Shown here piece after piece: positions 3,286 through 64,000 of a stretch of DNA of 64,000 nucleotides. The stretch is from Amoebophrya sp. A120. Its lineage: Eukaryota; Protista; Dinoflagellata. The position numbers and the translations under genes are program-made. The DNA lies in contig CAJINV010000002.1 of assembly GCA_905178155.1 (NCBI GenBank), positions 5,327,709-5,391,708 on the forward strand. The letters are read 5' to 3'. How positions within the stretch are numbered: position 1 is the stretch's first letter; each line of letters begins with the position of its first letter. The notes beneath the pieces were generated by a model that was not told the DNA's origin, made no database searches, and saw only the letters and a list, made by a program, of their open reading frames with translations.

Positions 3286-5803
3286 ATGAAGGTTCGACCT
3301 TTACCGCTTGCTCATCTTCCCGCCCGCCGCGGAAGATGGCCGCCACTTGTCGCGGTCACGACGTCGTTCTTGATCTTCCTGCTCGCTACAACTGCGTCAG
3401 CAGCAGCCTCGGCTTCTGCGGTGCACGAAGTCCATGTGGCGCAACAAGGTTATCAAGGACAACAAGCTCCCGCCGACGACTCCTCTAGTTTGGAATCTGG
3501 CAACGCGGAAAAACTGTTAGAGGATAACGAGCTGCTGAAGCAGCTGGCCGAGCAGGATGAGAAAGCGGTGCAGCAGCGGAAGGAGAATTTCCAAGCGGAA
3601 TCACACGTGCAGGAGGAGCTGATCGGGTTTTACGCGAAGTTATCAAATGTAAAAATGTCTGGGTCTGGAAGAATGCAACTTGTCATGCTAAATCTGAAGC
3701 ATGCAAAAATCTGTGTTGCATGATTACCAAAAGTCGTCCAGTTTTGACCAAGTCTGGAGGGAGTTTCTCATGCAGGATAGGCATGAGAGAGATCGCACAG
3801 AATCTGTCATGCTAGGTCCTGCATTCCAGACCTCATGGGTCATGGAAAAGCTGCATGACAAATCGCTCATTCTTCCAGACTCAGGCATTTTTACATCTGA
3901 TAGAAGTCTCTGCAGGCACAAAGACTCGCGCTGGACCAGCTGCAGTCCTCTTCCAAGCAAAACGCGGAAGAAGCCGTATCAAATGCAAAAATGTCTGGGT
4001 CTGGAAGATTTTGAGATTTGTCATGCTTGTCTGGCATGACCAAAAAGTTTGTGATGCGTGTCCGAGAAGAGACCCTTTTGCCTGTCATGCAAAAACGCAG
4101 TTTGTCATGCGAAAGCCGCAACACAGAGAACTTCTTTGAAAGAAGCGCAGATACTTCTCATGTTTGCCTGTGCATTACAGAGCATTCACTATTCCCAACG
4201 CAGCATTACAAGTTTCCAGACCCAGACATTTTTACATTTGATAAGCCGTGGAGATCAACAAGGAACTGAAGAAAACGCTGGACAACTTGAAGAAGAGCGA
4301 GGCGGGGTTGGTGGCTGCCGCGAAGGAGAAGGCCAAGGAAGCCGTCGTGCAGAAGTTCCGGGAAGAAAATTTTTTGTTGAAGAATTGGGACAAAGTGACC
4401 TTTGGAACGGAAAACTCAAAGGTGGCGGAAAGGAAAACGGAACAGTACGTGGCGCATGTGAGTATTGATAGCGTTTTTACTTTTATATACTCAACGCACT
4501 TGATTCCATTTTGTTGCTTGATTTAGGTCCGCATGACATATTCATCTTCGGCGATGGAGTGCTGCGCGACGCTTTTCGTATTTATTCTAGGCAGTTGTGG
4601 TGCGCAGCAGTGGGAGGTACCATTACAATAAATGAAAAATCGCAACATATAAAAACCTCTGTTGACATCTGCAGCGTAATTTTTTACCTTCCAACCACCC
4701 CTCCACGACAGATGACCTCTACACCCGCGCTTTGCAGAACGAGCGGCAAGCCGCGGGACTGGAGACCGAGGCCAACAGCCTTGCAGCGTCTTCCCAGGCA
4801 CTGTCCGACGGTGCCGACGACAAGGAGGATATGGAGTTCTCAAATGCTACATTCTCAACTGTATACGTGAATTTGTAATGCAAGAATGATAAAAGTGAAA
4901 CTGAAAGGGGGAAGATTGTGCCTTTTGCATTACAACTACTTCGGCGCAGATTCTGATGCTATCTAGCACGTGAAGAACTTATCATGCGCGGCAGCTCAAT
5001 CATGTAGATAATGATGGCAGTTTTGCGCGCCCAATCGCGTAACAGTTGAGAATGTAACGCTTGAGAATCCCATAGAGAAGGCCGGCGAGGCCCTGGCCGC
5101 CCAACTGGACCGGTCGGAGGCCGCGCAGTTGAAATTGCAGGCGGGCGAGAAGTATGCATCGCAAAAGTTGTGGTACCGTGCTGCTCGTGCTACAACATGC
5201 CATCACGCATGACAAATCCGCTTCCTCTGCTTGCATCTGCATCAGGGAAAATGAAATTTGCCGTGCAAGAGAAATTTTAAGTAGTATCAGTATGATGCTT
5301 TTGCCCTGCATACGAAGCGGGCCTACGCGGACGCGCTGATGGCGGAAGCCAAGCAGTGGACGGGAAAGCGGAAGGATTTGAGTCCGGGGACGGACGGGGA
5401 CGTGGATGAGTTGGTGAGAAAACCCTACGCGGATATCAAAAGCAAAAATCCCCCCTCCCCATATCAAAACCAAATTTCTGATGCTGGATTTGGATACACA
5501 AATCAGATTTGTGTTGCAGAAAGGCATTGCGGCCAGATCCCCAGGCTAGCTGCAGCCGTTTGGGTCTAGTTGCTCAGCACGGCAAACGGCTCACTTTTAG
5601 GCCCAAAAGCATGACAAATCGCTTCCATAATGGGGCGGAAGCTTCTGCCCTTGTCTTCTTGCAAGACAAATGTGACTTGTGACCTCAAATCAGCAACACA
5701 AATTTTAATTTTCGGAAACATGCCTTTTCGATATGGGGAGGGGGGATTTTTCCTCACAATAACGGACGTGCACTCCTCACTGGACTTCTTGGCCCGGCGG
5801 TGA
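3286..5803 (+). CDS. Hypothetical protein with N-terminal hydrophobic (signal/anchor) segment and coiled-coil body
   Basis: LVAVTTSFLIFLLATTASA followed by E/K/Q/A-rich helical exons joined in frame by removing five TIR introns; stop TGA at 5801-5803. Splicing around 4458-4710 is unresolved. Confidence 0.6.
3641..3902. mobile_element. TIR introner, family A
   Basis: TATCAAATGTAAAAATGTCTGGGTCTGGAAG ... CTTCCAGACTCAGGCATTTTTACATCTGATA, DR GAAGT. Confidence 0.92.
3977..4243. mobile_element. TIR introner, family A
   Basis: ~30-bp family A TIRs, DR AGCCG; removal gives NAEEAVEINKELKK. Confidence 0.92.
4830..5074. mobile_element. TIR introner, family D
   Basis: TATGGAGTTCTCAAATGCTACATTCTCAACTG ... 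CAGTTGAGAATGTAACGCTTGAGAATCCCATA, DR GAGGA/GAGAA. Confidence 0.88.
5153..5312. mobile_element. TIR introner, family C-like
   Basis: TATGCATCGCAAAAG ... CTTTTGCCCTGCATA, DR AGAAG/CGAAG; in-frame on removal. Confidence 0.78.
5434..5761. mobile_element. TIR introner, family B
   Basis: Poly-C/poly-G TIRs as at 274-594, DR GCGGA/ACGGA. Confidence 0.9.
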
Positions 5804-6607: not shown

Positions 6608-9600
6608 ATGTTTTCCGGAGTTGCCGGCATGCTGCCACTTCCTCCCACTGGGAGCGGTGGTTCGTCCTCTGCTGCCGGTGCCCAGGGCAGCACGAGTAGA
6701 GGCACAAATAGCGACCAGCAGCAACTCGTGCACTTCTGCGAATCGGTCGGAATTCGCTCGCTCGCGAGGAATGGCAAGTACCTGGCGCACTACAAGATGA
6801 CGATGACCACCACTTCCGGAGGGTTATACTATGGCACAGCAGGCGGGTCTGCTGGGAGTTCTTCGTTTGCGGGAACTAGTACAACGGCGAGCAGCACTGG
6901 TGTGAAAAATTCCGTTGAAATTGCGGGCGTCCACCCCTTTCCGCGCACCGACGGCACGTCCGCGCCCAGTGAATGGTCCGTGCATCGGTTTGCGCCCGAG
7001 AAGCGGTTTACCAATTTGCAGATCGGAGGCAGTTCTGCGTCTTCCTCCGCCACGGGTAGTAATGTCCGTGCCGCCGCCGGGGGACTACACCACAGTCTAG
7101 GTGGGCCGCCGTCGAGCTCCTTTCTAGATGAGGCCACGTTGCGATGCGGAGACTCTGTATTGCTGCGGTGTATGCGTTCTTGCCTTGCTGGCTGTGACCA
7201 TGTGCTACGATAGCATGGATAATTTAGTATAGTAGTACCAGCTCCTCGAGTCAACAGAGATCCGTCTCGTCGACGAGATCGATCGAAAGTAAGCTGCGAC
7301 GAGTAGTTGTTGTGTCATGTTGCAAGAATGAATGACCCGGCCAGGACGACAGGAACAGGTGTAGACCAGCACGTTGAATGTACTTGAAAAACCAAAACAC
7401 CAAGAAAGCGAATATCTAAACAGGTTTGCTTCGTTCGTAACCGCGACCCGGTGAAGAACACTTGCGAGTACCTCACCTCCCTCGGCCGGGAGCAGATTAG
7501 CGTCGAGCGAGATTCTTGCGATGCGACCAGGCCGGGGTACAATATGGCGTTCTCAACTGTTACATTCTCAACTGTTGCATGAATTTGTCATGCAGAACTA
7601 CCATCAAGATCCACACGAGAAAGCTGCGTCGCATGACAAATTTGCGAAGAGCTTAACAGCACCTAAATCTGTGCAGAACTTGTAATGCTAGAGGTGCAAC
7701 CTCCCCCCTTTCACTTTTGCAATTCTTGCATCACAGTTGAGAATGTAACAATTGAGAACGCCATATACAAATGGCTGATCGTGAACGCCGACGACCCGCG
7801 GAGCCAGGCGAAACTGCAAGAGACAGACGCGGTCTACTTGAAGGATCCGTTCCACAACTTCCTCTCCGTAAATCCGAGTTTCGGCCAGGGTGCTGGCGGG
7901 GGGCCCTCCGCGCCGGCAAAGTCCTCCACGCCAATCTGCGTTGCGGAGACCCTACGCCACGAGCGTTGCGTCAGGTATTGGGTACTTTGCATTTTTGCAA
8001 TAGTTTTCTTTCAGTATCAATTCATTAAAGGGAAGATCGGACAGAATGAATATAGAATTTTGCACTGCAGGCATTGCCACCTCGACAAACTTAAACGTCA
8101 CTTGAGCTTCTGGACGGTGTGTTTGTTGGCGCTGTCCTTCTTGTCACGACTGTCACTTCTTGCTATTTTTTCTCTTTCAGCACAAGTGGATGCAAAGGGA
8201 AAAGAATCCAACACAAATACGACGATCTTGATCTCTCACCTCATTTAGGTGGCAGCTCCTGCGCGCAAAGTCTGTGCCCATGTGGGAGGTCTTTGAGCCC
8301 CCTCCGGACAACACTACCGAAACAATAGCAAATTCAGCCGCCGCGGGTGGCTTTAACCCGAATCTGTCTTCGCTGGACATGTCGGTTCTCTCCGCGGCAA
8401 CGCAAAACCGGAACAATCCGACCAACAATCTCTATCACTTGCTCCAGCAGCGACAGGCGGAGACGACGCTCCCGGTTTTCAACCACGCTACGGACAACCT
8501 GTTTGACGCGCCCCATTTTATGCGCGAAAACAACGTTTTCCAACTCTTCTCCTCGTCTACCGAGGACCCGCCGACCGCTCTGGAGCAGGAGAAAGCGCTG
8601 GTGGAGGACATTTTGTTCTGCTTGCTCGGGGTTCGGGATGGCCAGTTCATTAAGTGTAAGAAGATACGAACAGGAGGATCTACAACTGGAACGACAACAT
8701 CATCTGCCGGCAGCAGTGGGGTAAATAATAACCCGCCTGTCGCGTTCAAATACGAGATTCCTTCTGCTGGTGCAACCACTGGTGGGGGCTCAGCTAGTAC
8801 CGGGACGACGAACCCGGCCTCTGCAACCGACAGCGCTGCGAACAATGCGGAAAGCTCGGGAAGCGCCGGGAACTCACGGGCAAGAGCGAGAAGTGGGTCC
8901 TCGTTGCAAGGCGGCGGCGTTCCGATACCTTGGAAGGTACAGGGAGTTTTCATCATTTTCTGTTGTTCCAGACTGTTGGCAAGCAGGTGCAAGTGATATA
9001 TTTCGTGCACTTTTGATCATTCCTCGTGCCCGCTATAAATCCTGTGCACGAATTTTTAGGCGAGATGTTGAAATAAATCTTCTCAAGAAATAAAACTCCG
9101 AAGGTCGCCCTGATCCATTTGACAAGGCAGATCCTGCCCCTGTGCGAATGGCACGCCACTGTCACCGACTACGTGGACTACCACTCGACACTAGACAAGG
9201 GAAAGATTCAGCACGCCCTGTGCGCCGCGGTAGACAATCTCGTGCAGGAATACAGATTGAAAATCGGCCAACTGGAGAGTCTCCATCGCGAAGATCATCA
9301 TAGCACCGGCGCAGGCAACAGCGCCGGCGGGGGTGCAACATCCAATTCAGCAAACAACTTCACGCTGCATCGCCTCTGGTACCTCCTGCAGCCGTCCTTC
9401 GAGACGATGTCGCAACTAGCGGCGATCTGCACCGCCGTGTACGGAAAAAGCGGGGGCAGCTTGCTTCGGGCATTAGAAGCGGTGATGCAGGGGGGACGAT
9501 TTGGGAACTCGGTCGTGCGGAAAAAATTGGCGGAGCATTGTATTGATAGAAAAACGTCGATCTTCCTAGCCTGATGTCAACCAACATATGTGAGTTTGGA

Positions 9601-12600
9601 TTCGCTTTATAGTTGCATAGGGAAATTCAAATTCTTCACCCGTGCGTGGATAGGATTTCTCATTCTCTTGCAATGTCGCATTCTTACAACTGAAGTATCC
9701 CTTCGTTTTTCTTGTGCTTCTGGTTCTTCCGCATCTACACCCACTCGTGACATTTTTTTTTGCGACAACCTCTCAGGTCTCGCGGCCGCCACGGTTCCTT
9801 TTTTCGACATGCTCGCGGATTGGCTCGAGGAGGGAAAACTCACCGAGGACGTGTACGACGAGTTTTTCGTAAAGAAGAACCCGCAGGTTTCGGAGAGCAA
9901 ATTTGGCCCCTTCTTCTGGCACAACCGTTACTACGTGGAGCCCTCGCTCATCCCCGGGTTTTTACTCTCCCTGAAAGACCGAATTTTGAAGGCGGGGAAG
10001 TATAAAAAGGTGCTAAACGACTGCATCCGGATCAAAAACGAGGAAAACGCGGGACGAACACATGTTGAACAAGATGCAGGACGAATGCATTTTTCCCAAC
10101 GGGGCTCGTCGTCCAGGGCGGTCACGACCTTCTCGAGTAGAAAAAACGAAAAGGACGACAACGACCACTACACGGGAATAAATAGTATTAAAATCGCCAC
10201 CAGCTTGATGACGAGTGTTTCGTCGGATCACCACGACCACCCGACGAGCAAGTCGAAAAGTAGAACTTTCTACTACACCAAGTCGGACTCCTTCTACATT
10301 CAGAAGGTCACGAAGTTCTACCAGCAGAGCTCGAAGCAACTGCTGCAGTACTTTCTGCACGATCTGAAGCTGAAGACGCGGCTCCGGGTCTTCCGCGCGC
10401 TGTTTTTCCTGGAGAAGGCAGACTGGGTCTCCATCCTGTTTTTGAACGCGCGCAACGAGTTGGAGCAGCCGATGAACTTGGTGAATGCGCAACGCTTGGA
10501 GTCCGTGCTGGACTTGTCGTTTCGCAGTTCCTCGCTGCACGTGCTGTATAACAACACTCTGGAGCAAAAACAACCGATTTTTGTCAACGCCCAGACCGCG
10601 TTGAAGGAAAGCTTGGACTTCGCGCGAGTAAACAGCAGCAGCACAGTATGAAATGCAAAAGCATCGTACTAGTAATAGTATAAATCGCATGACAAATTTA
10701 CCTTAAGAAAAAACTACTACGAGTGCGATACTTTTGCACAGGATACACAGATGAACAACTACATCTGGATAATGAAGCCGAAGACGCCGGGCGGGGTGTT
10801 AAAAGTGCCGGAGCAGCCACGGGACGAGGACGCAGACGAGGGCAAGATCAAGATGACGCGAGACCAGACACAGTAGATGAAGATCAGGAACAAGTAGACG
10901 AAGGCGGTAATGTGATTGAAGACCAAATTGCAGCAGACGAACGCCCTGCGTACACGACGTACTTCCCGAAGACACCCTTCGCTCAGTTTTCCCGGTTGCC
11001 GACGACTGACAAGGACGTCACGGAAAAGATTCTGTCGCAGATAAAGCCCGCATTTCACACCTTCCGAATCGAAGACAAATGCAGGATGTTGCTGCAATCT
11101 TCGAGTTATCAACTGCAAAAATGTCTGGGTCTGGAAGGATGCCAGATTTATCATGCAGGTTTTCTATGACCCACGAGGTCTGGAGTGCAGCACCTAGCAT
11201 GAAAAATTTGGTTAGATCTCTATCATGCCTATCCTGCATGGGAAATTCCCTCTCGACTTGGTGAAAACTGGAGGACTTTTAGTAATCATGCAACACAGAT
11301 TTTTGCATGCTTCAGATTTAGCATGAGGAGTTGCATTCTTCCAGACCCAGACACTTTTGCATTTGATACGAGTAACCTGGGAGGCTCTAGTACCTCAAGC
11401 GGCGGAATGGCAGCAGGTGGTATTTTCAGCAATAGTGGAGGGGGCGACTACAATCAGGAGGTGCCATTCGAGGATTTGATTGTCATGAACCCCAGCACGT
11501 CCGCCGCGATGAAAAACGTGCAGCAACCCGGAATCAAATTCTTCACGCTGCAATACACGACCGAAGCAGGAGGTGGTTCTTCGAGCTCTTCTTCTGCAGC
11601 CGCCGGGTCATCATACCAGTACCACCAGCCTCAGCCGCACGAGCAGATGAACAATTACGATACGACTGCGGCAGCTTCGTCGTCCTCCTCTCAGACGACG
11701 CAAAATCCGGAATGGCTTTTGTTCCACGGGAGTAACTTGCTGAAGTACCAGTGCATCTTCCGACACTTGATCTACCTGAAATACGTCGAGAAGCGGCTGG
11801 CGGACGTGTGGATCATGGAGCAAAAGATGGCGTTCGCGAACGGATCCGCACAGCACTACAAAATGCTGAACAGCAAATTTTCGACCGTCCAGAGCCTGCG
11901 GGAGTCCTACAGCCTCCGGCAGCAGATGTACCACTTCGTCCACTCCTTGCTCCACCTCTCGCAAGCCAGCTCGCTGGAGCCGAACTTTTTTAGCCTGATC
12001 AAGCAGCTAGACGAGATTGACTCTGTCGACGAGCTGCTGGAAGTGCACGATCTCTTTCTCTACAAGTGCTTCACCGAAACGCTGCTTTTGTTCGAGTGCA
12101 GCGGCGGGGGCGGGACGAGTGCAGCGTCGTCGCCGAACCAACAGCTGCCAGGAGAGCAAAACAGCTCGAATCTAAATCTCTCCTTCAACACGACAGCGAG
12201 TAGCACGACTACCATGTACCACACGCTGTTTATCACAAGAAGAAAATGTAAAGATACACAGTTTACAGTAATAAATTTCAGCAACACAAATTTTCATCTC
12301 TGCACGACAACGAAATAAGATTGCAATGTAGAGATCAACATAAGGGGAAGCACGCAGTACGAAATTGCGCTCTTCATATGCATAAGCATATCTGGCGTGA
12401 CAGGGCTTGTTTCTCTTGCTTGTTCCCCAAGAACTACCTAATGTGTAACTGTACCACTTTTTTCTTTGCATACTGTTGAAGCTTCTGTCCACCTGCGTTT
12501 TGTTTGCCACGGCCGTGGAGGACTTCATTCAGCGGTTCGGCACCACAACCAACATGAATAACACCGTCCCCGGATCCGGGCTGGTCTCCACGACGAATTC

Positions 12601-14281
12601 CGCCACCGCGGCGACCGCCAACACGTCGATTTCCAGCCGCTTCACGCAGGCGATCCAGGAAAATAACCGTATCAAATGTAAAAATGTCTTATGGCGCGCC
12701 TAAAGTAGCTTTTTTAAAAGTACTAGAATTTTTTTTTTGCAAGCGCTTCAGTGCCAGAACCTAGCTAATAAAACTAGCTAACTCTGAATATGCATGAGAA
12801 ATTTATTGCGAATAAGTGCAAAAGCACGTCGGCGTCGAGAGGTAAGTAGGCTGGTACCCTTCGAGGCTCTGGTCTACGGATCTGTCCAGAGCGGTCCCGT
12901 CGCCAAGCCTTGCTGAGGGTCCTCTACTCGGAGCTCTGGCTAGGTGTACGGTCCCGAAACGACGAAAACCGCGCGGAATTTACCAACCTCCGATACTCGG
13001 TTCCGAACATCCAGCCAGATCTTGACATTGGCGCACGATGGCGCTACCTACACTGCGACGGCGCATTAGCTGTCGAACATGGGAAAAAAAACCTCTGCGA
13101 ATCTATTGGGAAACTTCGCCCGAGTTTGTCCCCCTCCGCAGATGCCAACTGATCGGCCTCTTCGGGAGGGGTAGCTACATCGGGATTGGCGATTTTTTTG
13201 GGGGGTGTTTCGTAGGCCATTTTGCCGGCCACTTCGCGGGCCCTTTGGGGGCCCTGTGTTGGGGCAGGCCTGCGTGCCCGTTACTCTTTTCGCTGCGGTC
13301 CGCAGCAGGTGGCCTCCGCACTTGCGTATTGCGAACTCGTTCGCAAATTCGCAGTAGACACCGAACGTCATGAGATGGCCCACCTACTGTTTCAACCGGA
13401 GTAGATGACTTTGCGCACAACCAGAAACATGTCCGAGCTCGCCACGACGTACCGATAGCGCTCCGGACAGATCCGTGGGCCAGCCCTTCGTGGAAGACGA
13501 GCAAGCTACTACCTCTGAGTTAGACAACTGGTTACGCATGCAAAATTCCACCTAGTTTGATTAGCTAACTCTATCTAGTTTGGTATAGCTAGTTGCCGAC
13601 GTGCCGCACAAACATCAAAAAAAAAATTCTAGTACTTTTGAAAAAGCTACTTTAGGCGCGCCATATGTCTTGGCCTGGAAACTTGTAATGCTGCGTTGGG
13701 AATAGTGAATGCCCTGTAATGCACAGACAAGCATGAGAAATGTCTGCGCTTCTTTGTGTTGCGTTTTTCGCATGACAAGCTGCGTTTTTGCATGACAGGC
13801 AGAAGGGCCTCTTCTTGGACACGCATCATAAACTTTTTGATCATGCCAGACAACCATGACAAATCTCGCAATCTTCCAGACCCAGACATTTTTACAGTTG
13901 ATAAACCGGTTGGCGCTGCAATCGGTGCTCGAAAACGAGCACTACAAGAAGATGATTCGGAAGTTCCAGACGATCTTCAACAATCAGCTGCAAACCCTGC
14001 TGAACCAGGCGAAGCAAATTGTGGCGCAATTCGGCTTATCCTGTGCAAAAGTATCGTATTCGTATAAATGCAAGTCTTGCAGCATTACAAATTTTCTTCT
14101 CCAGGTAAATCCGCATTGCAAATTTTAATTCTCATGCTGAGGGAATTTGTCATGCATTTATACGAATCGAATATACTTTTGCAGTTCATATGGCTCGGAC
14201 CACTACCTTCACCAACTGCTGCTAAAATTGGACTTTAACGATCACTACTTGAACGCAAGCGTTGTGGTTCTGGGGGGCTAG
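6608..14281 (+). CDS. TUBGCP2: Gamma-tubulin complex component 2 (GCP2/Spc97) with low-complexity insertions; multi-exon, start approximate
   Basis: GRIP-domain motifs QEKALVEDILFCLLG, ILPLCEWH..GKIQHALCAA, PFFDMLADWLEEG..DVYDEFFV, FWHNRY..IPGFL..ILKAGKY, KYQCIFRHLIYLKYVEKRL, LRQQMYHFV and terminal LLLKLDFNDHY; TAG at 14279-14281. Confidence 0.85.
7543..7765. mobile_element. TIR introner, family D (opposite orientation to 4830 and 21260)
   Basis: TATGGCGTTCTCAACTGTTACATTCTCAACTG ... CAGTTGAGAATGTAACAATTGAGAACGCCATA, DR TACAA. Confidence 0.9.
10647..10745. mobile_element. TIR introner, family C (99 bp, shortest copy)
   Basis: TATGAAATGCAAAAGCATCGTACT ... GAGTGCGATACTTTTGCACAGGATA, DR CACAG. 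Confidence 0.85.
11107..11368. mobile_element. TIR introner, family A (reverse complement of the 3641-3902 type)
   Basis: Family A TIRs, DR CGAGT; interior is the reverse complement of the 3641 copy. Confidence 0.92.
12231..12472. mobile_element. TIR introner (diverged)
   Basis: TATCACAAGAAGAAAA ... TTTTTTCTTTGCATA, DR CTGTT; removal gives HTLLKLLSTCVLF. Confidence 0.78.
12670..13903. mobile_element. Composite family A introner (reverse complement of the 3977 type) carrying a nested element
   Basis: DR AACCG; left TIR is split at TGTCT by a 976-bp insertion; removing the whole unit gives ENNRLALQSVLE. Confidence 0.9.
12690..13665. mobile_element. 976-bp non-autonomous TIR element nested in an introner TIR
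   Basis: ~50-bp TIR TATGGCGCGCCTAAAGTAGCTTTTT..AAGTACTAGAATTTTTT and its reverse complement ending GGCGCGCCATA; DR TGTCT (12685-12689 and 13666-13670). Confidence 0.92.
14037..14190. mobile_element. TIR introner, family C (reverse complement of 2011-2159)
   Basis: TATCCTGTGCAAAAGTATCG ... TACTTTTGCAGTTCATA, DR CGGCT/TGGCT; removal gives FGSDHYLHQLLLKLDFN. Confidence 0.9.
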
Positions 14282-24720: not shown

Positions 24721-27069
24721 AACGGGCCCCCAAAACAGGAGAAGAAGAAACTTGAAAAAAACCTTAAAAAAACTTGAGCATTTTTGATTTATGGCATTGC
24801 AAAAAGCAGAAATCAAGAGGGGCGACCGGAGGACAAAAAAAAGGCACGGAACGGACGCGATTTCCGGTTTCTAAAAATAACAATCGCGGCGGCGATTTTG
24901 AAAAACTAAGTTAGGTGAAGGGCGGGCGCAAATTAAAAATCCAAGGACTCGATCGGGAGGCTTTTTTTTCATTTTATAGCGCGCCAAAATCCAAATTTGT
25001 GCCGCAGGAATAGTCGTGCATAATTTTCACGCGAAGGCGCGCCATTTTCAAAACTTTATGCGTTCGACTAGGGGCAGATATTTTCCGCAGAAATGGGGCA
25101 GCATTTCGCACGAACTAGACGGTCGTGGGGCGCGGCTCTTCTTCATTTAGGTGGGGGCCGCCTCGATGCATTGGTTGCGCCGCTCGCGGGGATGTTCAAA
25201 ATCCCTGCTTCGCACGGGTTCCGGCTGCCTGGGTGCCCGCGCTTGGCGGGCTGGTGGGGTTCTGGCTCTCGCGAGGCCTTTTTGTAGTGCCGAAGCGGCC
25301 CCACTCGGAGGGCTTGCCGGCACAGGCGGCGCAGCGGGCCGTCCTTCCCGGGTCCCCCCGGATGCCCTTTTATAATACGCAAAGCCCCGCGGCCCGCGCG
25401 ACTCTGCGCAAGCAGCATCTGGGCCCCTAGGCTTGTATGCATAGGGGTGCCCACGCGTGTGGGCAGGCGGCCCGTGCTTGCGCGCCGTGTTTGCACGGGT
25501 TCCTTCGATCCGGTCTCGAAAATGAAGAAAATCAAAAGTGTCACACCATCGGCCGGAGGGTGTGATACTTTTTGCCGCGGTGCTGTCATGGATGCAAAAA
25601 AACACGCAAAACCGGCGTCGACCATACCATTGGCTCTAGGGTGTGATACTTTTTGCCAGGATGAGTCCACGGAGGCCGAAAATGGCGAAAGCGGCGCCGA
25701 CCATGCCGTGGGCTCTAGGTTGTGATACTTTTTGCCAGGCTGCTACGGCGTTCAAACTTGCAACCCGGGGAAAGTGTTGGCGAAAATGCGCCACCTCCGC
25801 CGAAGCATCTCGGCAGCAGGCGAAAAAAACTTGGATCTGGCGACGTTTTTGGGCCAAAATCTGAAGGGCCCCGTCCACCATACCACCGGGGCTAGCTTGC
25901 GACGGCTTCCAAGCACGCGACCCGGCTTGCAAGTTTATTCCAAGTTTATTTCAAGTTTTTGTTGCGATTCCGGCCGCCCGCGGGCGTGCCCAGTTTTGGG
26001 CCATTTCCTGAGGCCTGTCCACGAGCTGACGGAGCCGATTCGCGAGTCGCAAAAGCGGCGGCGCCTTCCGAAGGCGCCGGCCGAACTTGGGAAGGGGGGT
26101 AAATTCCTGATTTTTGGTGGTTTTCTTCGCCCATGGTGCCGCCGTGGTAAAAAGTATCACACCCTGGCGCCGATGGTACTGCTAACGCAGGTTGCCGCGA
26201 TGGCGAAAGCGAAAAGCCTCGCCCGCGTGCCCGCCCTGCCAAAAAGTATCACGCCCCAGCGCCCATGGTATGGCCGGCCGCGCTTCCCGCCTGGCCGCCC
26301 GGCTGCTTGCTAAGCACGCCGCGCCCGCTGGCGCCGCCGGCCTGGGCGCGGCCGGCCCCCTCGCCCGCCCCGGCGGCCCACGGCGTTGGTTCGTGATTTC
26401 TACCGGCGCGCCGCGGCCGCACGCTCCAGGCCCATCGGTTGCGCCGGCCACCCGCCAGGGGGGGCTCCGACGAGCTGTGCGCGCGGGCGCCTTGGGCTAT
26501 TCCGGACAAAGGAAAGGGCGAACCAGCGCGCCACCCCTAGCGCCCAACGCCGCCCGCCCGGGCTGGCCGGCGCGCCCCCTCCGACCGTACGGCCTGCCGG
26601 CCTTTTTGGGGTATCAGGCTCGGCGGCCTTTTCGGCATTGGCCGCCGCTGCGCGAAGCGGTCGGGCGGGCTGATTAGCGGCGGGCGCGTTTTTTTTTCTG
26701 GGTATCTATAACGAAAAAGCAGCGAAGGCGGCACCCAAAACAACCTACGCCCGGTCTGAATCTCGACAATAGGCAGCTTTGGTTGGAGCGGCCAATTGTC
26801 CGGATTCGGGTCGTGTTTTGATTTCAAAGCAAACGGGCATTGGTTCCTGGCACTAAACGTGAGAAACAGTATGAAAATGCACAAAAAGCGTCGCACCGTT
26901 CCGCAGCTTGTCCTCCTGTTGTTGGTTTCAAAGTTGGGCGCGTCACACTCACAGGCGCGCTCACAGAGCAGCTTACGTTGAAGCTGTCGCGACCCTCGCG
27001 AATATGGGTCGCGCAAGTCTTTGGCAACTTAGTTGCAAGTTTCGATCTCCATAAAATTGGGGGTCCGTT
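24721..27069. mobile_element. ~2.35-kb TIR-bounded insertion with internal repeat arrays (putative non-autonomous DNA transposon)
   Basis: Left AACGGGCCCCCAAAAC..GAAACTTG versus right CAAGTTTC..TTGGGGGTCCGTT; CCAGT on both flanks; GC-rich interior with repeated TGTGATACTTTTTGCC. No transposase ORF recognised. Confidence 0.65.
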
Positions 27070-36000: not shown

Positions 36001-39000
36001 GAAAACACGGAGGAGCACGATATTCTCCAGGATGTGGATTTGTTTCTGGTATTTTTGATCTGGCCAGCATGTTAATACAAGTAGGAAGATCATCGGTAGT
36101 TGCCTGCCTGCCGCATCATGTTCATGGCACCAAGAACATGCCGTGATCATATTCATGAAAACTACATCAGGCTCTACGGGCCTTAGGTTGCTAAAGCAGC
36201 TGCTTATTTATTAGTTCATCTTGTTTATCATGCGAATCAAAGAAATGACACCAGCAGCAAGAAAGAAAGAAATTTATGTTTACAAAAAAAAAAAAACCAG
36301 AACTGGCGCCCTATCCCGTTGAATTCGCTGAAGGAACTGAACGTGCTTGGTTGCGTATCAAAATCAAAAGTGCCCCTTTCCCAGAAGTGGAGAATATTTC
36401 TCAGGCAAAGCTAAAGACAAGTTGCCTTTCCAAATGGATATGGAAATGAATTTGTCTTGCATGAAAGGACGACGCGGCTTCCCGATCGAGAGCTTAATAC
36501 AGGTGTTTGAAGCCGTTTCTACATGTTGACAAATTCTGCGACTGCTAGGACTTTTACTTTTTGCAACTTGTTTACAAAGCTTTGCTTTTCTGCATAGGTC
36601 GGCATACTTTGTGTTGCTGCATGAAGTTGTAATGGGGATTGTTTTCAATTTCATCGGGAGGTGATTCACCTTGACTTTGTTTCTGGGGTACTAGGGGCAG
36701 TTTTCATTTCCATAGTGTGGGGGCTTCGGTCGTGTGAGTCTGCGCGTGCACGTGGAATCCGGGAGCACGTTTGCGCTGAAGTCGATTTCCAAGGGATTTT
36801 TGCAGAGAAAACGGATGTATCAAATGCAAAAATGTCTGGGTCTGGAAGATTCCGAGACTTCTCATGCAGTTTTTCCAAGCTCCACTAAGTCTAGAATGCA
36901 GGACCTAGCATCACAGGATGTGCAGCCCTTCTGTGATGCCTGTTCTGCATGAGAAATGCCCCCTCAGCATGGCCAGAAATGGGCACCTTTTGCAAGTCAC
37001 GCAACACAGATTTTTGTATGATGCGCAACATGCATCACAAGTCCCAACCTTCCAGACCCAGACATTTTTGCATTTCATAGGATGGAGTCGGCTGTGTTCC
37101 GGGAGAAGGAAATTCTCTTCCTCTGCAAGTGCCGCTTCATCGTACGCACGTTTCAGACCTACCGCGACAACGCGTATAACCCGCTCAGGTGTTACAATCT
37201 CAAGCGTTACAATAGAATATGGAAATCTGTGATGCAAGAGTGCATGATCTAGCCTCTTCCCACAGGATTGCGCATGACAAGTTTCGGAGCTCCAAGCCGC
37301 ACTATAATCTGGCTAAATTTGTATTGCAAAAAGTGGAGCGCTCTGCAAGTCTGTCATGCTCATCATGCAACACAAATTCCAGATTCTATTGTAACGTTTG
37401 AGATTGTAACACCTGAGCAGGTTATAACGCGTACGTGCACTTTCTGATGGAGGTGTGCCTGGGCGGGGAACTTTTCTACCAGTACCACCGATTCAAATAC
37501 CACGGAAGTATTACCAAGGCCAAATTCTACTCGGCAACGGTGATCACCTATCCTGCAGAAAAAAGCTAGTAGCATCTTATATTCGTTGTACTAAATAACT
37601 CCAGACGATATAAGTGGTGCATGACAAGAAATGTCGTGCTCCCAGTGGAGGTCTCGCCCATCAAGGTAAATAAGTAAAAACCAGCACGCCCACTAGTAAA
37701 ACTCCACTTTTCATCATGCCGAGAGCGTAATTTTACTTTTACGCATGCTATGGTATGCTATGGGCTTTTTCAGTGTGATATCGCTGCCTTTGCGTACCTC
37801 CACGCGCGCGGCGTGCTTTACCGCGACCTGAAGCCCGAAAACCTCCTACTGGACCACCGCGGCTGTTGCAAGTTGACGGACATGGGGCTGGCAAAGATCA
37901 TCGGCACGAATGGGAACGTGAAAACGTACACGACCTGCGGCACGCCGGACTACTTTGCGCCGGAAATCGTAAAGCACGAGGGGCAGACGCTGGCGGTGGA
38001 CTGGTGGTGCCTCGGCGTCTTGGTGTTCGAACTCATGACGGGCAACGCGCCCTTTGAAGCCTCGGACACGCAGCGAACCATGCAGCGCATTTATCAAAGT
38101 GAAAAAAGCCCCCACCCCATATCGGAAACGGAAGATGCGCGAATTTGTGATGCTGTATTTGAGTACACAAATCAACTTGTATTGCTAGAAGGCCAAGAGA
38201 CGAAGCTGCGGCCTAAGTTGCAGGCTATCTGTCATGCTGTTTCCCACTTCCAGTTGCCTTTTGTCATCCTGGAGCTGCAAGGCTTTCCCACGCCGGACAG
38301 CACTACAGTCCGCATCTTTTGCCTTCTAGCATCACAAAGCTGATTTGTGACCACAAATCTGCATCACAGATTTCCGTTTTGATATGGGGAGGGGGCATTT
38401 TTCATTGTAATAGCATTGTGCGAGGTAAAAATAAGTGGATTTCCTTGTCACTCCTGATGCGGTTGCGGAAGCGCGGCCATACTAGCTCGAATATAATTAT
38501 TGCACTCTCGTCTATTTCTACTTCTGAAGTTCTAGAAACTGCACATGAAGTAGATGTTGTAAGGCTGCAAATCGTGTTTAAAAATAACCTCAGGTGTGTC
38601 GCGCGTGAACTTTGACGGCTTCCAGCGTCGTGCGCCGGATATCATATTGAAAAGCGCCCCACGGCCCCCACGCCCACCCCCACCCCCAGAAGTAGTAGAA
38701 AATCAAAATATTCATATTGATTAATATGATTTCTGATGCAGAACAAGACTTTAATTCATGCATAGAGATTCTTTTTCTTTCTGCGATTCAGATTCCAAAC
38801 CATCTACTACAAACATGCCAAGCCCCAGCGCTGTTATGTTAGGTCCTTATTTTAGCAATTGCAACGCAAATGCTTTTTCCAAGTGCTGAAGAGCAGCCCT
38901 GGGGTAAGTAAGTACTATGTCGAGGGGTATCGAATGTAAAAGTGTCTGGGTCTGGAAGATTGCCAGATTTGTCATGCAGGTTTTCCATGACCCATGAGGT

Positions 39001-42668: not shown

Positions 42669-43784
42669 CATGAATTTGAGCCACGATCACGATGTTGGAT
42701 ATGCTCAGTTATAGAAAAACTTGTTGGGGTGGTTGAGTAATAAGTAAAAAAGAAAAATATATTGCGTCTGTAAAAAATCAGAGCAAAAATGTGCTTTGTG
42801 CTGCAAGTGCAAGTGCAATTCCAATTTAACAAACTAGAACGACAGAAGTACTTTATGTGTGGTAATCAATTTGATATCATAAAACGACTGATGGTCACTA
42901 CTAGCGAGCAGCTCTTGCCACATATTTTTCAGAAGCACTACCCTTTTTTTTCGGTATGGCAAACGCACCCACATGCAAACGCGACCTCGTCCCCGTGACC
43001 ATGCGTTGTAGTTGTGATTGTCTATTTTTACCCCTTTGTGTTTTCTCTCAGTCAGCATTTTTTATTGTGAAGGTTGATAGTGTAGCGATGATCAGCATTT
43101 TGCAGAAGGAGAAACGGTGATCATCCGACATGATCATCAACCGAAGAAAAATCGCAGCATACCCTCGCGATTCGGCTTTTTTTTTACGGACCGCAGAAAT
43201 GATTACAGCTTGAGCACTTGTTAGCGGCCGCGTATAACAACACCCTGCCGCCTGCGGACGGGGCGCATGCGAATGCAAGCGGCGCGGTAATTAGATTTGT
43301 GAAGGTCGCAGCTGCATCATCAACACCACAACGACTACGACCGCCCTAATCGCGCCGCGGCCTTGGACATATAGTATAGATTTGACCGCGCGGAAGTAAA
43401 AAGTACTTACCCCAGCACGAGGCTGCGCAATCGGGTAGTAGTACGGGACAACTTGCGACTTCTGTGTACCACCAGACGAGCACGCCAGAGCACGAACCTT
43501 GTTGCGACGAATTCAGATCTACGTACGGAAAAAATAATGCACCCTCCACCTCCTGATAAAACTAAAAGACAACAAAACAGATTTGGTCATAATGATTTTG
43601 TATGAGAATCATCCAAAGACCTCTAGGACGAAAGTACTTACTGCGTTTGTTGCAAGAGCTTTATCTTCCTCTACGAACGACATCACTTAGTATCAGACAT
43701 CATCAAGTGAAGGCGTTTATATGTTGATGAACCTGAGTAGGATTTTAGAGGGCGATTTTCCATTCTTCGAAACAAGGGCACTAC

Positions 43785-45507
43785 TGACCCGCGCGAAATG
43801 CGCGCGCAAGACCCGACGGAACTTGCGGCGCTCCGGCCTGACTGCCCGTACACAACGGCGGTCACCTCCTGGACACATTGGGTGGCCCTGCCTCCCGCGC
43901 AAGCTTCAACTGCACAAAGCCTCAGTGCTGACCAGCAGCCGGCCCGCCGGGTGTATCATACCTACGCCCCTGAGCTGGAATCGGATCAGGGAGCCGACCG
44001 ACAATTTGCGCCACCGGCTGCGCAGTGTCCCCCCTGGGCTATGGAAGCGGTCAAGACCCTAGAGAGTGCAGGCTGGAGCCGGCACCAGGTGCAGCGCCTC
44101 CAAACCTACCGCCCCCAGGTGGGGCGGCTAGAGAACTTGCGGGTGCACACGCATGAGCTCGCCGGAACCAGAGATGAACTAGTGGCGCGCTACAAGTTCA
44201 CCGGGGCGTGCGACGGGGCACACCTTGCAGCAACAGGGCGCGGGGCCTCGGCTGCCTACCTTCACAGCAGCCGCGAAGCGAGGGTGCTTACAGGAGCTTG
44301 GGGCGGGAACAAAAGCTCCTACCGCCCGGAGTTCACGGCCCTCATGGATCTGCTCGGCCTCGCCATCCAGGCCGCCGCCGAAGAAGATACGGCCGCTCAA
44401 GAATTACTTCTTTTGTCCGACGCACAGGCAGTCCTCGCCCGCATTAAAACGCTTGCGCAGTGCGGCGGGCTGGCTACGGATGCAGAGTGCGAGATGCTGG
44501 CCCGCCTGGAGCGGGTCAGTCGGCTCTACAAATGCATCAGGATCCAGCATGTGTACGGCCACACCGAGGTCACCCACAACGAAGTCTCGGACGCCTTGGC
44601 TGACCACGCCGCCGCCCTCGGTCCCGCGCCAGCTGAGTGGCCACAGGCACCGACCCTGGACGACGTGAAAGGATTAGTCAAGGCGGAACTAGACAGGCAA
44701 GAAGTGGACGCCATGCAGTCGCTGAAGCGGGCGGCCCCGTCCGTCAGTGGCAGCCTCTGCAGTGTCTTCCTCCCGGACCGCCCGGCCTGCAAGAAACTGC
44801 ACAAAGAACTAAGCGCGCAGGGCGAAAGTCGCGAGGTTCAAGTAACTGCGGCAAGCCTACTAGGCGCCACCCGCTTCAAGCAACTCACCCCGGCCGGGCT
44901 TCTCGGCCGTATTTGTCCCAAGTGCGACGCCGTTGCGGACACGCCGGCCCACTTCCTAGAGTGTTACGAAGTCGGGGACCTTGGCGGGCTATCGGACCCG
45001 CAGCGCCTGGCGCGCCTGTTCTCCTACGTCACATACGGAACGCGCGCACACCAAGACGGGCGGCGCCGTGCCGCCGGCGGCGGCGACGCAGCCGGGCCAC
45101 CGCCGCCCCAGCACAGGGGCAATTTTTGAGCACGTAGGGCATTTTGCCACCATGAACGTACAGCCGTCACTCCTTCTGGCCTGGTGCCAGTCGCACGTGG
45201 TGCCGCTCAGGCAGCGTCTCCCTACACACCGTAGTATAGTCATTCTGTGCTGCGCACCAGGAGTGCGCCCTCTGATTGATGAAACTATAAGGAACCAGCG
45301 CAAGAGCCGGCCCGCCATGGTCACACCCTCCAGCGCGATGCTCTCCTCCAGCCTCACGTCTAGATGTCGCGTTGCGTAGGTGGGTTTCGTTTCACTGTGC
45401 TTCCACAACCTCGTTGTTCAGTGGGTCGCTGCCAGAACAGCAGGATCAAAGAGCGAGCACCGCGTCTGTTTGAAACAAGAGTGGATCAAATAAATAAAAA
45501 AATAAAA
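43785..45507 (+). mobile_element. 5'-truncated non-LTR retrotransposon with A-rich 3' tail and 30-bp target-site duplication
   Basis: Flanks ATTTTCCATTCTTCGAAAC(A/C)AGGGCACTAC at 43755-43784 and 45508-45537; 3' end AAATAAATAAAAAAATAAAA; RNase H plus Cys/His knuckle ORF. Confidence 0.85.
43798..45129 (+). CDS. Retrotransposon ORF C-terminus: RNase H domain plus Cys/His zinc knuckle (RT domain absent)
   Basis: RNase HI catalytic pattern FTGACDGA..SSYRPEFTAL..LLSDAQAVL..QHVYGHTEVTHNEVSDALA, then CPKC..DTPAHFLEC; intronless and GC-rich. Confidence 0.82.
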   Translation: MRAQDPTELAALRPDCPYTTAVTSWTHWVALPPAQASTAQSLSADQQPARRVYHTYAPELESDQGADRQFAPPAAQCPPWAMEAVKTLESAGWSRHQVQRLQTYRPQVGRLENLRVHTHELAGTRDELVARYKFTGACDGAHLAATGRGASAAYLHSSREARVLTGAWGGNKSSYRPEFTALMDLLGLAIQAAAEEDTAAQELLLLSDAQAVLARIKTLAQCGGLATDAECEMLARLERVSRLYKCIRIQHVYGHTEVTHNEVSDALADHAAALGPAPAEWPQAPTLDDVKGLVKAELDRQEVDAMQSLKRAAPSVSGSLCSVFLPDRPACKKLHKELSAQGESREVQVTAASLLGATRFKQLTPAGLLGRICPKCDAVADTPAHFLECYEVGDLGGLSDPQRLARLFSYVTYGTRAHQDGRRRAAGGGDAAGPPPPQHRGNF

Positions 45508-45951
45508 ATTTTCCATTCTTCGAAACCAGGGCACTACAGCTAGTATGAAGAGGAGGACGAGTTTGGTGCTATTGTATTATTGGGCAAACCGCTAATAGTA
45601 CTAATATCGGAACCAAGCCGATGACAAAAATGACACGACTTCTTTGTTGTGACTTTGTTCTTTGACACAAATAAACATTCGCACGAGAACAGTACTGGCA
45701 AGAATGATCGCAGAAGTAGTCTACTTCGCGTCGTCGAAGATGAAAAGCAAAAATGTGGTCACGACTGACGGGCCGGCCACGTGATTTATTGCAACCGCGA
45801 TCGGTTTCTCTACTTCGATCACAAGTAGCGCTTCGCTGCGACTTTGGTAAAAGTGGTTGTGGTTCTTGTGTATTAGAGGCCCCATTTTCTTCTACTTTTT
45901 TTTCAGCTACTGGCTTCATCTATCTTGTCGGCACCATCATGAGAGTCAGTA

Positions 45952-47282
45952 TACCTCACTCGCGCCGCCGTGGAGGCACAACGGCGCGGGAATTTACGCA
46001 TACAAATAGAACAACAGGGCTCAAGGCGGTGTGTATAACTGGGCAAAAGAAACGCACGAGGGCGATAACTGGGCTACAGAAAATAGGAGGGGCAGGCAAC
46101 GCGGACGAAGAAAAGTGCTGCGCTATAAGCCTGTTTGGCCGAAAAAGCAAAAAGCGCAACACCTGAAAAGGCCGGGAGGCAACAAGCCACGCCGCTGCCG
46201 CCGCAAAATGGCAGGAAGGGGCAGGCCTTTCCTTTGTTGATTGCGCTTTTTGGCTTTCTACTTCGCCCCGCTGGCGGCAAGTCGGTTCAGTGAACCAGCG
46301 GGCGCAGTTCTCGTCCCGGCTCTTTCTTTTCCGGCTGGTTACCTCGGAACGTCGCCAGCCGCTTCAGCTTCTTTCGGCTACCCTTATCATATGACTGGCC
46401 GAAAAGAAACAAGGGCCAGGGCGCCCGTGGTCGCTGTGTGCGATAGTTCTAGCTGGTCCTGCCAGGTGAAAGCAAGCAGAACAGATTTCGCTCAGGGGAT
46501 AGGAAGGGAAAGTGATGGAGTGGATTGCAATTCCGGCTCCCGTCTTGCCTGGCCCAAAGAAAGACCGCGCGCAGTTTTTCAAAAACCAAGGGGGCCGCGG
46601 CTTGTTTCGCTTGTTCACGCCTGAGGCTGCCGCGAGCAGCAGGTGAAGAGCAAGCGATTTGGAGAACAGCCCAGAGAATGTTGCAGCCGCTTTCTTTGTG
46701 TTTTTCCTTGTTTACGTATTTCCATTGGACATGGCATGGGGCACTTATTTTTGGAAATGCTCGAGAAAAGGCCAGCGCTGGCCGGTGGGGCGCATGGCTT
46801 TCCTACTTTCTTGCGGATCCGGAAAGCTGCGCTTTTGGAGTATTTCGGTTCTGGCTTGAGCAACAAGCAATAACAGGCTTCCTCTCTCGAAGTTTGAAAG
46901 CGGCGCCCTTGCTTGGCTTGGTCAGAATCTGCCCGCCTTTGGAAAAGCAGACACTCGGGCCTTTTCTGTAAGACAGAGGAGGCAGCTTTCACTGCTATCG
47001 GGCTGGGGTTCCTCTGGCAAAAGAGCGAAAGAAAAGGGAAAGCAGCTACGCTTTAAGGACAAAGCGGCCTGTCTACTTACAAGGAAAAAGCGGCCCTTGC
47101 TGCTTCTTCCGACCGGGTTCTGCCCCGCAGCTGATTTATGAAAATACTAAGCCGCCTGGGTGCAAGCAGAGCGCGCCCCTCTTGTCTTTTCCGACAAGCC
47201 TGGCCAGTCTGCAAACCTCCGAAAAGCTTTTGGCTTTGCGCCGAAGGAAAAACATGGCATGTAATCTATCTTGTTGGCACCA
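45952..47282. mobile_element. ~1.3-kb insertion of unknown type between 36-bp direct repeats
   Basis: TCATCTATCTTGTCGGCACCATCATGAGAGTCAGTA at 45916-45951 and 47283-47318, plus a partial extra copy at ~47264-47284. Confidence 0.6.
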
Positions 47283-49546
47283 TCATCTATCTTGTCGGCA
47301 CCATCATGAGAGTCAGTACTAGGAGTAGAAGTTCCATAGCTCCTCATCAAGCACAAGCTCTCATCTGCACACCAGTCCCCACGAGCAGGAGCGTTTTTGT
47401 GTCGTGACCGGACGAGGTGGTCGAGATGTAGAAATTGAAATGCTGATCGAGAAGCACGCTCCTGCAAGAAAGAGGCCACGTAGCAAGATTTTTTGAGTAG
47501 ACTGGGTGTAGTTATTCTGTCATATTTGTAAGCTCGTCTGTCAGTGTCGGTCGTGCTTGTGCTTCACCCCGCCCCAGGAACAAGAAAGAAGTCGAGCACC
47601 TTCTAGATTCTCTCTTCTGAACGATGTAGCGAAAGCAACCGTACAAACAAGGTGAAGGTGTTGCAAAAAGCAACCTCATCTGATCGATGTGGACACCTGT
47701 GGCAAAGCACAACAATCTTCCCTGCGATCGAAGGATCAAGAGCCGAGGCGCAATAACACAAGAGACCTAGGGCACAACAATCTCAATCTATTCCCCCCCG
47801 CCACTTAAGTAATCGATGTAAAAACTTAGGGTGCAGCAACAACAGTACTGTAAAAGTCGAAGGGCGTGCAACCGCAAGGTCAACCGCTGCATTGGAACAG
47901 CAAGAATTCTTTCACGTTTTTTTTATTTACGTCTTCATTATTTAAGACTGAACGACATAAATCTTTTTTCATAGCAGGAGTGTGACATTTGGACAGTTTC
48001 TCCGCACAGTTCTTAACTACTTAGTGCTCCCGCACCAAGAACATTGGCGATCATTGATCAGTCCATCATCTTGTTGTACTGATTGTCTGATGCCCATTTT
48101 CTTGGAGGTGCTGCCTGGTAAAAATACTATGCTAGTACTAGTAGTCCAGACTCGTCACAACTCAGTCTGCCGAAGATTTTCTTTGCTCCACCTCACCTTT
48201 TGAAATACACATGCATAACCATTATATTGATTTGTTTAAATTGTAGCAGACTCAGAATCGATGACGCTGGTCGTGCCGAGGAGTGCTCGCGCTCGCCGCA
48301 GTTTGACAGTCAAATGAAATACCGATGAGGACTTCGAAGACTAAAAGAATTCTATTACCGATCGCGATCGACATCTTGGTCATCTATAGTATTTCGAACA
48401 AGAATCGAGATCGACAGCGCTATACTTCTAGACGAGTCAACATCTTTCCGCGTAAAACTTAGTAAAACTGACCTCTGGACGAAGAGGTAACTAAGAAAGA
48501 TCCGTCGAAGAAGCGTTAATTTTCACCAGTAAGACGAAAACGAGTACGCGCTCCCCTTCGCTTGAAGAACTTTGCCGTAGTTTTCGTTTGAAAGTACAAG
48601 TAGTAACAATAAATGATCGATTCTGTAGAATGCTGTAGCGTTTCGTTGGTACTAGATAAGATGACACGAGATGTAGGATGATTCGAAGTTGTAGTTACAG
48701 GTCGGACGTGCACCAAGGCGATATGGTTCGAAAAAACAAGCGACAGAGCCTGCGACAAGTTATGCAAATTGAGGTGTGTCAGGAAATCGCACAAAAATTT
48801 GAACTTCTTCTTTCTGTACAGTCGATGAAAGTCCTTCCCCTAGGATCATTATCTCTTTGTCGTCGTAGAGAGCAGGTGCAGGTCAACGCTTCTACTGTCC
48901 ACCAGTTGGTCCTACAACTACAGCCTCAAAGTAGCGGTGCGCCTTTTTTGGACGTGGTGTTCACGACTCGCAGCAAATAAGATAACGGTGGTCAAGGTCA
49001 TGCACACAGCAATATGTATATTAGCTGGTGGAACAGGTGCAGCGAAGGATCCTCCTCCCTCTATGTAACATTTGATAAAACCTGATTGTTCAATATCAGA
49101 CCAAGATCCTAGCGCTCACGACGAAAATAAAACGAGGACGCGGGTGGAGACAAATCACTATACTTTTTTGGATTTTTGTTGGCCCGCGACCCTACGCCTG
49201 ATTCGTGTGCTTATGCCTGTGATATCAATTTATTATGTTTTAACCTCGACGTTCGTCGCACTTCACATGTATTTTAAGATTTGAGTGAATTATTTCACAT
49301 TCACAACGACATTCACGTATAGCAAGCCAAAAGCTTCCTCCGTGATTTTCATTCTCGCAGCGACACCTAGTTAGGTACACAAAAAGAAGAAAATGTCCGA
49401 ACGTTTCGACCGTGTAGACAAAACAGTACAAGATAGAACAAGTTGGTCTTTAGTTTAATGTTCACCGTTTGTGTTCGATTTATTGTTATTCGAATAAGTA
49501 GTACTAACTTTTACGTTCAACGAACTAGCAGGTCAAGAAGTGCAAG

Positions 49547-63072: not shown

Positions 63073-63928
63073 ATGGAATCTGCCAGTTTCCACGACTTTC
63101 GGATCGTGCAGGAGCTCGGCCGCGGGTCCTTCGGCACGGTGTATAAGGCAAAATGGAACCAAAACCAGCACCCGGGATCCTCCTCCTCGCGCCCGACCAG
63201 CACGCGACCGGGGCCGCCTGGTGGAGACCCCGACGCGCAACCCTTTTTAGTGTTGAAGCGAATTGACTTCAAGCCCTGGCACCAGGAGAAACACCGGCTG
63301 GCGGCGAAAAAAGAGGTGCAGAAGATAGCTGGTTGATGTGCATGTGGATAGGTGGTTTTTTGTTTTCGAAATGAAACTTCGTCTCCTTTTTTCCACATGC
63401 GAGGTAGATTCCAACATTTGTCACGGTCGGGTCGTATCTATCAACAAGACAATGAAATTTCTATTCAGGTCCAGATGCTCGCGAAGGTGCGGCACCCGAA
63501 CATTATTCGGTACTACGGCAGCTTCACGTATAAGGGCGCCCTGTTTATCTGCATGGAGTATGCAAGCTGCGGAGACCTGCACCAGTTCATTCAGAAGCGG
63601 CAGAGGAGGCAGGCGCAGTTGACAGAGGATATCAAATGTAAAAATGTCTGGGTCTGGAAATTTGTAATGCTAAAAGTGAATGGGAGTTCCACCGCAATAC
63701 GGAGCCAAGCATGACAAATTTTTGGGCTCCTATGTGTTGCGTGTTCCGCATGGCAAACTGCGTTTTTGCATGACAGGTAAGAGGACAGCTTTGTGCCCAT
63801 GCATCACAGATTCTTGAGCCATGTCAGACATCCATGACAAACATAGCAATCTTCCAGACCCAGACATTTTTACATTTGACAGAGGACCTGCTTTGGAAAT
63901 TCGGGGACCAGCTCGTCGCTGCGATTGC
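63073..63928 (+). CDS. NEK: NIMA-related (NEK) protein kinase, 5' part (continues beyond the window)
   Basis: FRIVQELGRGSFGTVY..VLKRI..AKKEVQMLAKVRHPNIIRYYGSF..LFICMEYASCGDL..LTEDLLWKF..QLVAAI. Confidence 0.85.
63630..63881. mobile_element. TIR introner, family A
   Basis: Family A TIRs (right end ACA), DR GAGGA; removal gives LTEDLLWKF. Confidence 0.9.
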
Positions 63929-63942
63929 GTACTAACTACTGA

Positions 63943-64000
63943 TATCAAATGTAAAAATGTCTGGGTCTGGAAGAATGCATGTTTGTCATGCTTGTCTGGC
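63943..64000. mobile_element. Left end of a family A element (cut off by the window edge), apparently inside a GT intron starting at 63929
   Basis: TATCAAATGTAAAAATGTCTGGGTCTGGAAG. Confidence 0.8.

Follow-up and report, generated by a model that had tools for sequence, protein, structure and literature searches.

How can an intervening sequence still be cut exactly out of a transcript when one of its own terminal inverted repeats (TIRs) has been broken by a second element? The question is raised by a locus of Amoebophrya sp. A120, in the GCP2 gene, where an introner carries another, larger element 20 nt inside its left end. It bears on a wider problem, the removal of the tens of thousands of hairpin-ended, non-canonical introns of Amoebophrya without a detected U1 snRNA. 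We analysed the locus within a window of 64,000 nucleotides (the whole stretch of DNA considered here) and aligned public sequencing runs (X1 to X6 and X9, of 11 runs listed) to that window.

The gene carries the Pfam domains GCP_N and GCP_C, and its best PDB matches are to GCP2 (1e-18) vs. GCP3 (1e-7), so that the assignment to GCP2 made in the original prediction holds. TAT..ATA insertion sites lie at 7543, 10647, 11107, 12231, 12670 and 14037. The named ortholog is a protein of Amoebophrya sp. A25 (P0002, 45% identity), which shows no difference in the 14 residues spanning the exon join discussed below. The element at the last of these sites (14037-14190) has mismatched repeats that differ in the first base; the RNA retains the upstream first base, so the cut at this element does not coincide with the beginning of the repeat. 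The features of the gene and of the nest at 12670 are as follows.

7424-14281, + strand: modelled part of GCP2 (5' start not fixed), with canonical introns and six TAT..ATA sites
12478-12669, + strand: GCP2 exon upstream of the nest, ending in the left AACCG (12665-12669); from RNA-like contigs and reading frame
12670-12689, no strand assigned: first 20 nt of the host left TIR; these contain TAT, AAA (positions 11-13) and, at 12685-12689, the target pentamer TGTCT
12690-13665, no strand assigned: inner TIR element of 976 bp with TAT..ATA ends, non-autonomous; a coding domain was not found
12690-12739, + strand: inner left TIR, 50 nt, 98% complementary to 13616-13665
12862-12893, + strand: inner subterminal inverted arm; partner 13459-13490, 81% over 32 nt
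13616-13665, - strand: inner right TIR, 50 nt
13666-13670, + strand: second TGTCT, the duplication from the inner insertion; single in uninterrupted family ends
13671-13903, no strand assigned: rest of the host introner, with nt 21-30 of the left TIR at 13671-13680 and the right TIR at 13874-13903
13904-13908, + strand: right AACCG, the host target-site duplication
13909-14032, + strand: GCP2 exon downstream of the nest; from the X4 and X5 letters after 12669 and the alignment to the A25 ortholog

The entire 1239 nt are absent from GCP2 mRNA. RNA-like contigs from X4 and X5 match the window up to 12669 and continue with the letters of 13909-13938, a 4729-nt contig from X6, listed up to that point, also departs from the window at 12669, and the X3 and X4 contigs have lengths that leave room for precisely 129 letters, those of 13904-14032. 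The RNA status of these runs is a guess, none being on record as RNA, and four runs are one sample from one study; X4 skips a GT..AG intron (9540-9776) and is on that account spliced RNA. Among the contigs listed, no RNA-like contig passes from an exon into the element. Removal of the 1239 nt restores the GCP2 frame, while four other removals give early stops; both the frame restoration and the splice point at AACCG that had been predicted are thus borne out, the RNA-like contigs being joined at the predicted place. The raw RNA reads of X9, which bear the same species label, match only repeat ends at 90-95% likeness and no exon, and are likely from another strain.

On the DNA side, X1 and X2 (DNA-like) each hold one exact, unbranched contig of single-copy depth that leads from the upstream exon as far as 12719. 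These contigs cross 12669|12670 with 50 letters beyond it and 12689|12690 with 30, one below our bridging rule, and stop where the sequence turns into pure insert TIR; among the contigs listed, none that is DNA-like covers the right junction or the nest from end to end. The assembly may itself derive from these DNA-like runs, and rare forms drop out of such contigs. Because a sizeable excised or empty allele would break the DNA-like contig, we conclude that in this material the unit is removed in RNA.

Deleting the insert and one TGTCT in a script rebuilds a host introner of 253 bp, in which the 976-bp element had interrupted the left TIR after nt 20. The host ends (12670-12689 and 13884-13903) pair at 19 of 20 positions and are bordered on both sides by AACCG (12665-12669 and 13904-13908). 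The TIR sequence of the host continues 3' of the insert, and the rebuilt TIR pairs at 27 of 30 positions. Aligned to an uninterrupted copy at 3977-4243 (reverse), the rebuilt host has 233/253 identities and 20 mismatches, with one 14-nt gap elsewhere and none at the insertion site. A further family copy at 63630-63879 is 79% alike, and many more copies of the TIR occur in the window. (The right end of the 63630-63879 copy is without the final TA and retains the 5-bp repeat; another copy begins at 63943.) Relative to its family the host end departs from the consensus at nt 21 and nt 24, within a stretch (nt 21-30) that is strongly conserved in the family TIR, and its body differs from many other family copies at several places. 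Both host ends fit the A120 introner pattern of TAT, seven looser bases and AAA; the host also has TIRs with a direct repeat in the 3-5 nt range, belongs to a repeated family and is removed from RNA non-canonically, as A120-type introners are. We assign it to the A120 class of introners.

The inner element has more perfect ends, with 49/50 paired positions between its arms (12690-12739 and 13616-13665) and 20/20 in the terminal stem. It is flanked by TGTCT at 12685-12689 and 13666-13670. A pattern search for host-family ends found 21, and in all 20 others the pentamer is single (in one of them as TGTTT) and the TIR then continues. Because uninterrupted family copies have the pentamer once, the repeated TGTCT is a true target-site duplication. 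The inner junctions can locally also be parsed as a 6- or 7-bp duplication, and the length of 5 bp rests on the window-wide rule described below together with one sister copy that starts at 12690. Unlike the 47 of 66 element ends that have AAA at positions 11-13, the insert has no AAA there, its A run beginning at 13. No transposase was found in the insert: its stop-to-stop frames reach at most 115 aa, and a Pfam scan of five frames inside it gave one unrelated match below the cutoff. Rfam gave one match below threshold.

No second copy of the insert was found in the window. Within the insert, exactly matching X2 contigs reach depths of 97, 124.6 and 73.9 vs. 44.1, which suggests that near-identical copies number two or three. 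One sister is more distant: with 65 differences over about 800 nt, it has the same start base (12690) and another left flank (X4, X6). We considered site-specific targeting of the host TIR and found it unsupported, the one sister seen having a different left flank (n = 1). A scan of metagenomes for the first 20 nt of the insert gave a single match (L001), which falls in an unrelated reading frame, shows no further likeness and is attributed to chance. With TIRs, a target-site duplication relative to the empty site, dispersed copies with the same end and no transposase of its own, the insert has the properties of a non-autonomous TIR DNA transposon. Its arrival by DNA transposition is supported by the TIRs, by the duplication relative to the empty site, by the dispersed copies and by the absence of the target from mature mRNA. 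Of the two elements, the insert looks the younger. Several elements of the original prediction accordingly hold: the nesting of a 976-bp TIR element 20 bp into the host left TIR is confirmed by coordinates, TIRs and the rebuilt host; the nested element follows the proposed TAT/ATA plus 5-bp rule, with TGTCT as duplication and the alternative local parse just mentioned; and DNA-level transposition agrees with empty sites, target-site duplication and dispersed copies, an origin already published at the level of the class (PMC12130899).

Scanning the window for TAT..ATA ends with a 5-bp repeat gave 34 rows, reduced to 33 elements after one cross-pairing of two elements was dropped. Three shuffled windows gave 0, 0 and 0, which argues that the elements are not due to chance; a looser scan gave 36 vs. 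1-3 in shuffles. The scan misses some elements, e.g., those at 63630 and 36356. Duplications with mismatched copies occur in the elements at 4830, 5434, 23506, 32868 and 39292. Apart from the nest, element sizes range from 99 to 359 bp, and elements cover 13-14% of the window. The terminal pairing of the 33 elements has a median of 16/20. None of the 33, host and insert included, has a GT-AG or GC-AG register (chance expectation 2.6), and removal is for that reason not ordinary U2 splicing. One of 32 hosts in the window is nested (95% interval about 0.1-16%), a frequency at which the genome may hold many nests; a deficit of nests relative to random insertion is not significant (P 0.07-0.38).

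At 24740-27050 a GC-rich block of ~2.3 kb breaks a long reading frame and contains internal inverted arrays (25545-25739 vs. 26111-26285); it has a TAT start at 24790 without a TSD-matched end and is possibly a longer or compound element. A stop-to-stop frame of 462 codons at 43741-45530 has an RNase H domain (Pfam 3.3e-07) and lies in a block flanked by direct-repeat copies at 43757 and 45510, likely a retroelement remnant; next to this block, another of ~1.37 kb (45918-47318) is delimited by the two copies, at 45918 and 47285, of a 34-nt direct repeat. An old TAT..ATA element lies in a protein-kinase gene at 36356-36714, where the 5-bp repeats agree at 2/5 positions in register and the same amino acids result from either repeat copy.

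The reading that we consider likely, with a probability of roughly 0.68, is that the insert arrived by DNA transposition and that the 1239-nt unit is cut from RNA in a single step that needs the outer paired ends only. The 976-bp element would have landed after nt 20 of the 253-bp introner, moved by a transposase presumably acting in trans. In the pre-mRNA, the first 20 nt of the host are predicted to pair with the last 20, with the insert folding out as a side arm, such that the exon ends would meet without prior removal of the insert and the 1239 nt would be cut exactly. An optional removal of the insert first, in some transcripts, would be compatible with this scheme and would result in the same mRNA. 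The outer 20 nt are likely enough for removal because the host keeps 19/20 pairs and its AAA, elements with weaker ends are removed, and the outer stem is predicted to form. The three other removed elements in GCP2 have 18, 14 and 13 of 20 terminal pairs, vs. 19 in the host. Folding, which is an equilibrium prediction for 1.3 kb, gives a three-way junction in which the outer stem is formed and the insert is a side arm; the mean predicted probability of the outer stem is 0.91 in the nested state, 0.92 with the insert removed and 0.90-0.92 with the insert shuffled 5 times. The element at 12231-12472 is removed exactly from RNA despite ends that are predicted to be mostly unpaired (4.9 of 20), and pairing alone may for this reason not be the signal. 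The original prediction had left two routes, in which either the outer 20 bp suffice or the insert is removed first and the host TIR rebuilt; the evidence favours the former, and the latter, not needed to explain the data, may still occur.

The inner-first route in its obligatory form, in which the insert is cut first, the 30-nt host TIR is rebuilt and the host is then removed, is unlikely in our estimation. It would be favoured in time, because the insert has TAT..ATA ends, a perfect terminal stem and a target-site duplication and is completed in transcription 240 nt before the host 3' end; moreover, exact removal of the insert restores the 27/30 TIR, and the conservation of nt 21-30 in the family points the same way. 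That conservation, however, is explained equally well by transposase binding, and neither the removal of weaker-ended elements in GCP2 itself nor an outer stem predicted without removal of the insert fits a need for rebuilding. The insert also is without the AAA found in most element ends, and a near full-length sister (on 12690-13653) is unspliced in RNA-like contigs (X6 record 26, depth 13.1; X4 record 10, depth 4.35) in which its flanks are not shown; its depth in X6 is about that of GCP2 in the same run. No inner-only joint occurs among the contigs listed, an observation without power since pre-mRNA of the locus is likewise unseen among them. Stretches of the insert that lack RNA coverage carry no weight either way. 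A joint in X5 from 12689 to 13681, considered as a possible intermediate, belongs to a separate copy of the host family, whose flank and letters differ. The broader proposal of a TIR twintron, in which a non-GT-AG machinery that recognises any TAT..ATA hairpin with 5-nt repeats would cut the inner element in the course of its transcription and then the rebuilt host, we hold tentatively, as a possibility that is somewhat improbable.

Three further explanations dispense with splicing or with the nest. Direct repeats together with a long hairpin are a classic setting for template-switch artefacts, and the join could in principle be a reverse-transcriptase switch between the 5-nt direct repeats across the hairpin, given that both are present and that the join has no canonical dinucleotides. 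Against this, unremoved or partly removed forms would stop GCP2 early, the ortholog is continuous across the join, the weakly paired element at 12231 is skipped just as exactly, and no RNA-like contig listed runs from exon into element; we regard such a switch as highly unlikely. The TA-starting ends, the transposon anatomy, the exact restoration of the frame and the lack of a splice consensus would also agree with excision at the DNA level in the expressed stage, as for internal eliminated sequences of ciliates, but both DNA-like runs are unbranched through 12669|12670 and for 50 letters beyond, in contigs that drop rare variants, and we know of no nuclear dimorphism in this lineage; the chance of this reading is very slim. 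Finally, the nest could be an artefact of the assembly joining repeats, both parts being repeats and no contig listed covering the right junction or the whole unit, but the left junction is exact in two DNA-like runs, and beyond a matching 5-bp duplication the host continues in register, collinear with the sister copy; we find an artefact scarcely credible. Removal in one step through the outer ends is our preferred reading.

Comparison with published systems, here as described in the available portions of the papers, places the host among known elements. The introners of A120 were described as non-canonical, with TIRs, direct repeats of 3-5 nt, ends of TAT, seven looser bases and AAA, and a length of about 240 nt; their removal is backed by RNA-seq, with the mechanism unexplained and U1 snRNA undetected (PMC7789003). 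The host shares their ends, repeats and size, whereas the insert differs, being without AAA at positions 11-13. The same study (Farhat et al. 2021) argued against general mobilisation by transposases in A120 and kept only introns of 40-1000 bp, and the 1239-nt nest falls outside its analysis because introns above 1 kb were excluded; the word 'nested' has 0 occurrences in the available main and supplementary text. In a later survey (Gozashti et al. 2025, PMC12130899), 17 of 21 rows for A120 introner families, of 58 A120 rows, were classed as TIR DNA; TSD calls were of 2-5 bp, some families measured 800-1200 bp, and family 38 combined TIRs with LTR-element-like ORFs. The available text of that survey makes no mention of nesting, and neither the insert nor the host TIR motif had a match in the supplements searched, which leaves the family unmatched there.

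Outside Amoebophrya, stwintrons and twintrons (PMC8469720) are alike in that one intervening sequence lies inside an end element of another, and proliferating stwintrons have terminal inverted repeats of 45-55 nt. Stwintrons, however, consist of U2 introns, the inner of which disrupts an essential donor, branch point or acceptor, and have no TSDs, whereas here there is no GT-AG and TSDs are present; unlike in stwintrons, the broken part of the nested host TIR is likely dispensable. The nonconventional introns of euglenids (PMC12501133, PMC11282704) share non-canonical borders, pairing of the ends, TSD-like repeats and a MITE-like origin, and knock-ins showed that a short terminal signature suffices; they belong to another lineage and have CAG..CTG near their ends, vs. 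TAT..ATA here. Circular forms of the excised RNA are reported for Euglena. By analogy, the nest would work most like these euglenid introns. IS3EU/GingerRoot DNA transposons (PMC10045372) have TA..TA termini in common with the insert and a TSD that is usually 6 bp, whereas the insert combines TA..TA ends with 5 bp.

In the available portions of PMC7789003, PMC12130899, PMC11282704, PMC9860276 and PMC12501133, we found no introner nested in the TIR of another in Amoebophrya; Roy et al. (2023), possibly describing nests, lay outside this search. For A120, both this class of element and its TIR-DNA origin are already published, and the nesting in a TIR is what appears to be new, a modest addition. 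As a single case it is modest also in that transposons nest often and elements cover 13-14% of the window.

Its value is that the nested insertion amounts to natural mutagenesis of a splicing system that is otherwise unexplained: a core cytoskeletal gene tolerates an interruption of 981 nt behind nt 20 of the introner's left end, and the empty site proves that the 5-nt repeats are target-site duplications. To our knowledge, there are no genetic tools for Amoebophrya. The element at 12231-12472 is a useful test of the pairing model, and where nests lie within their hosts, genome-wide and in data that already exist, would set limits to the essential signal. If the TIR twintron were true, a transposon of this superfamily could be removed from any place in a transcript at which it had inserted, including the inside of another such element, and nests collected throughout the genome would serve to map the cis-signal of this splicing system.
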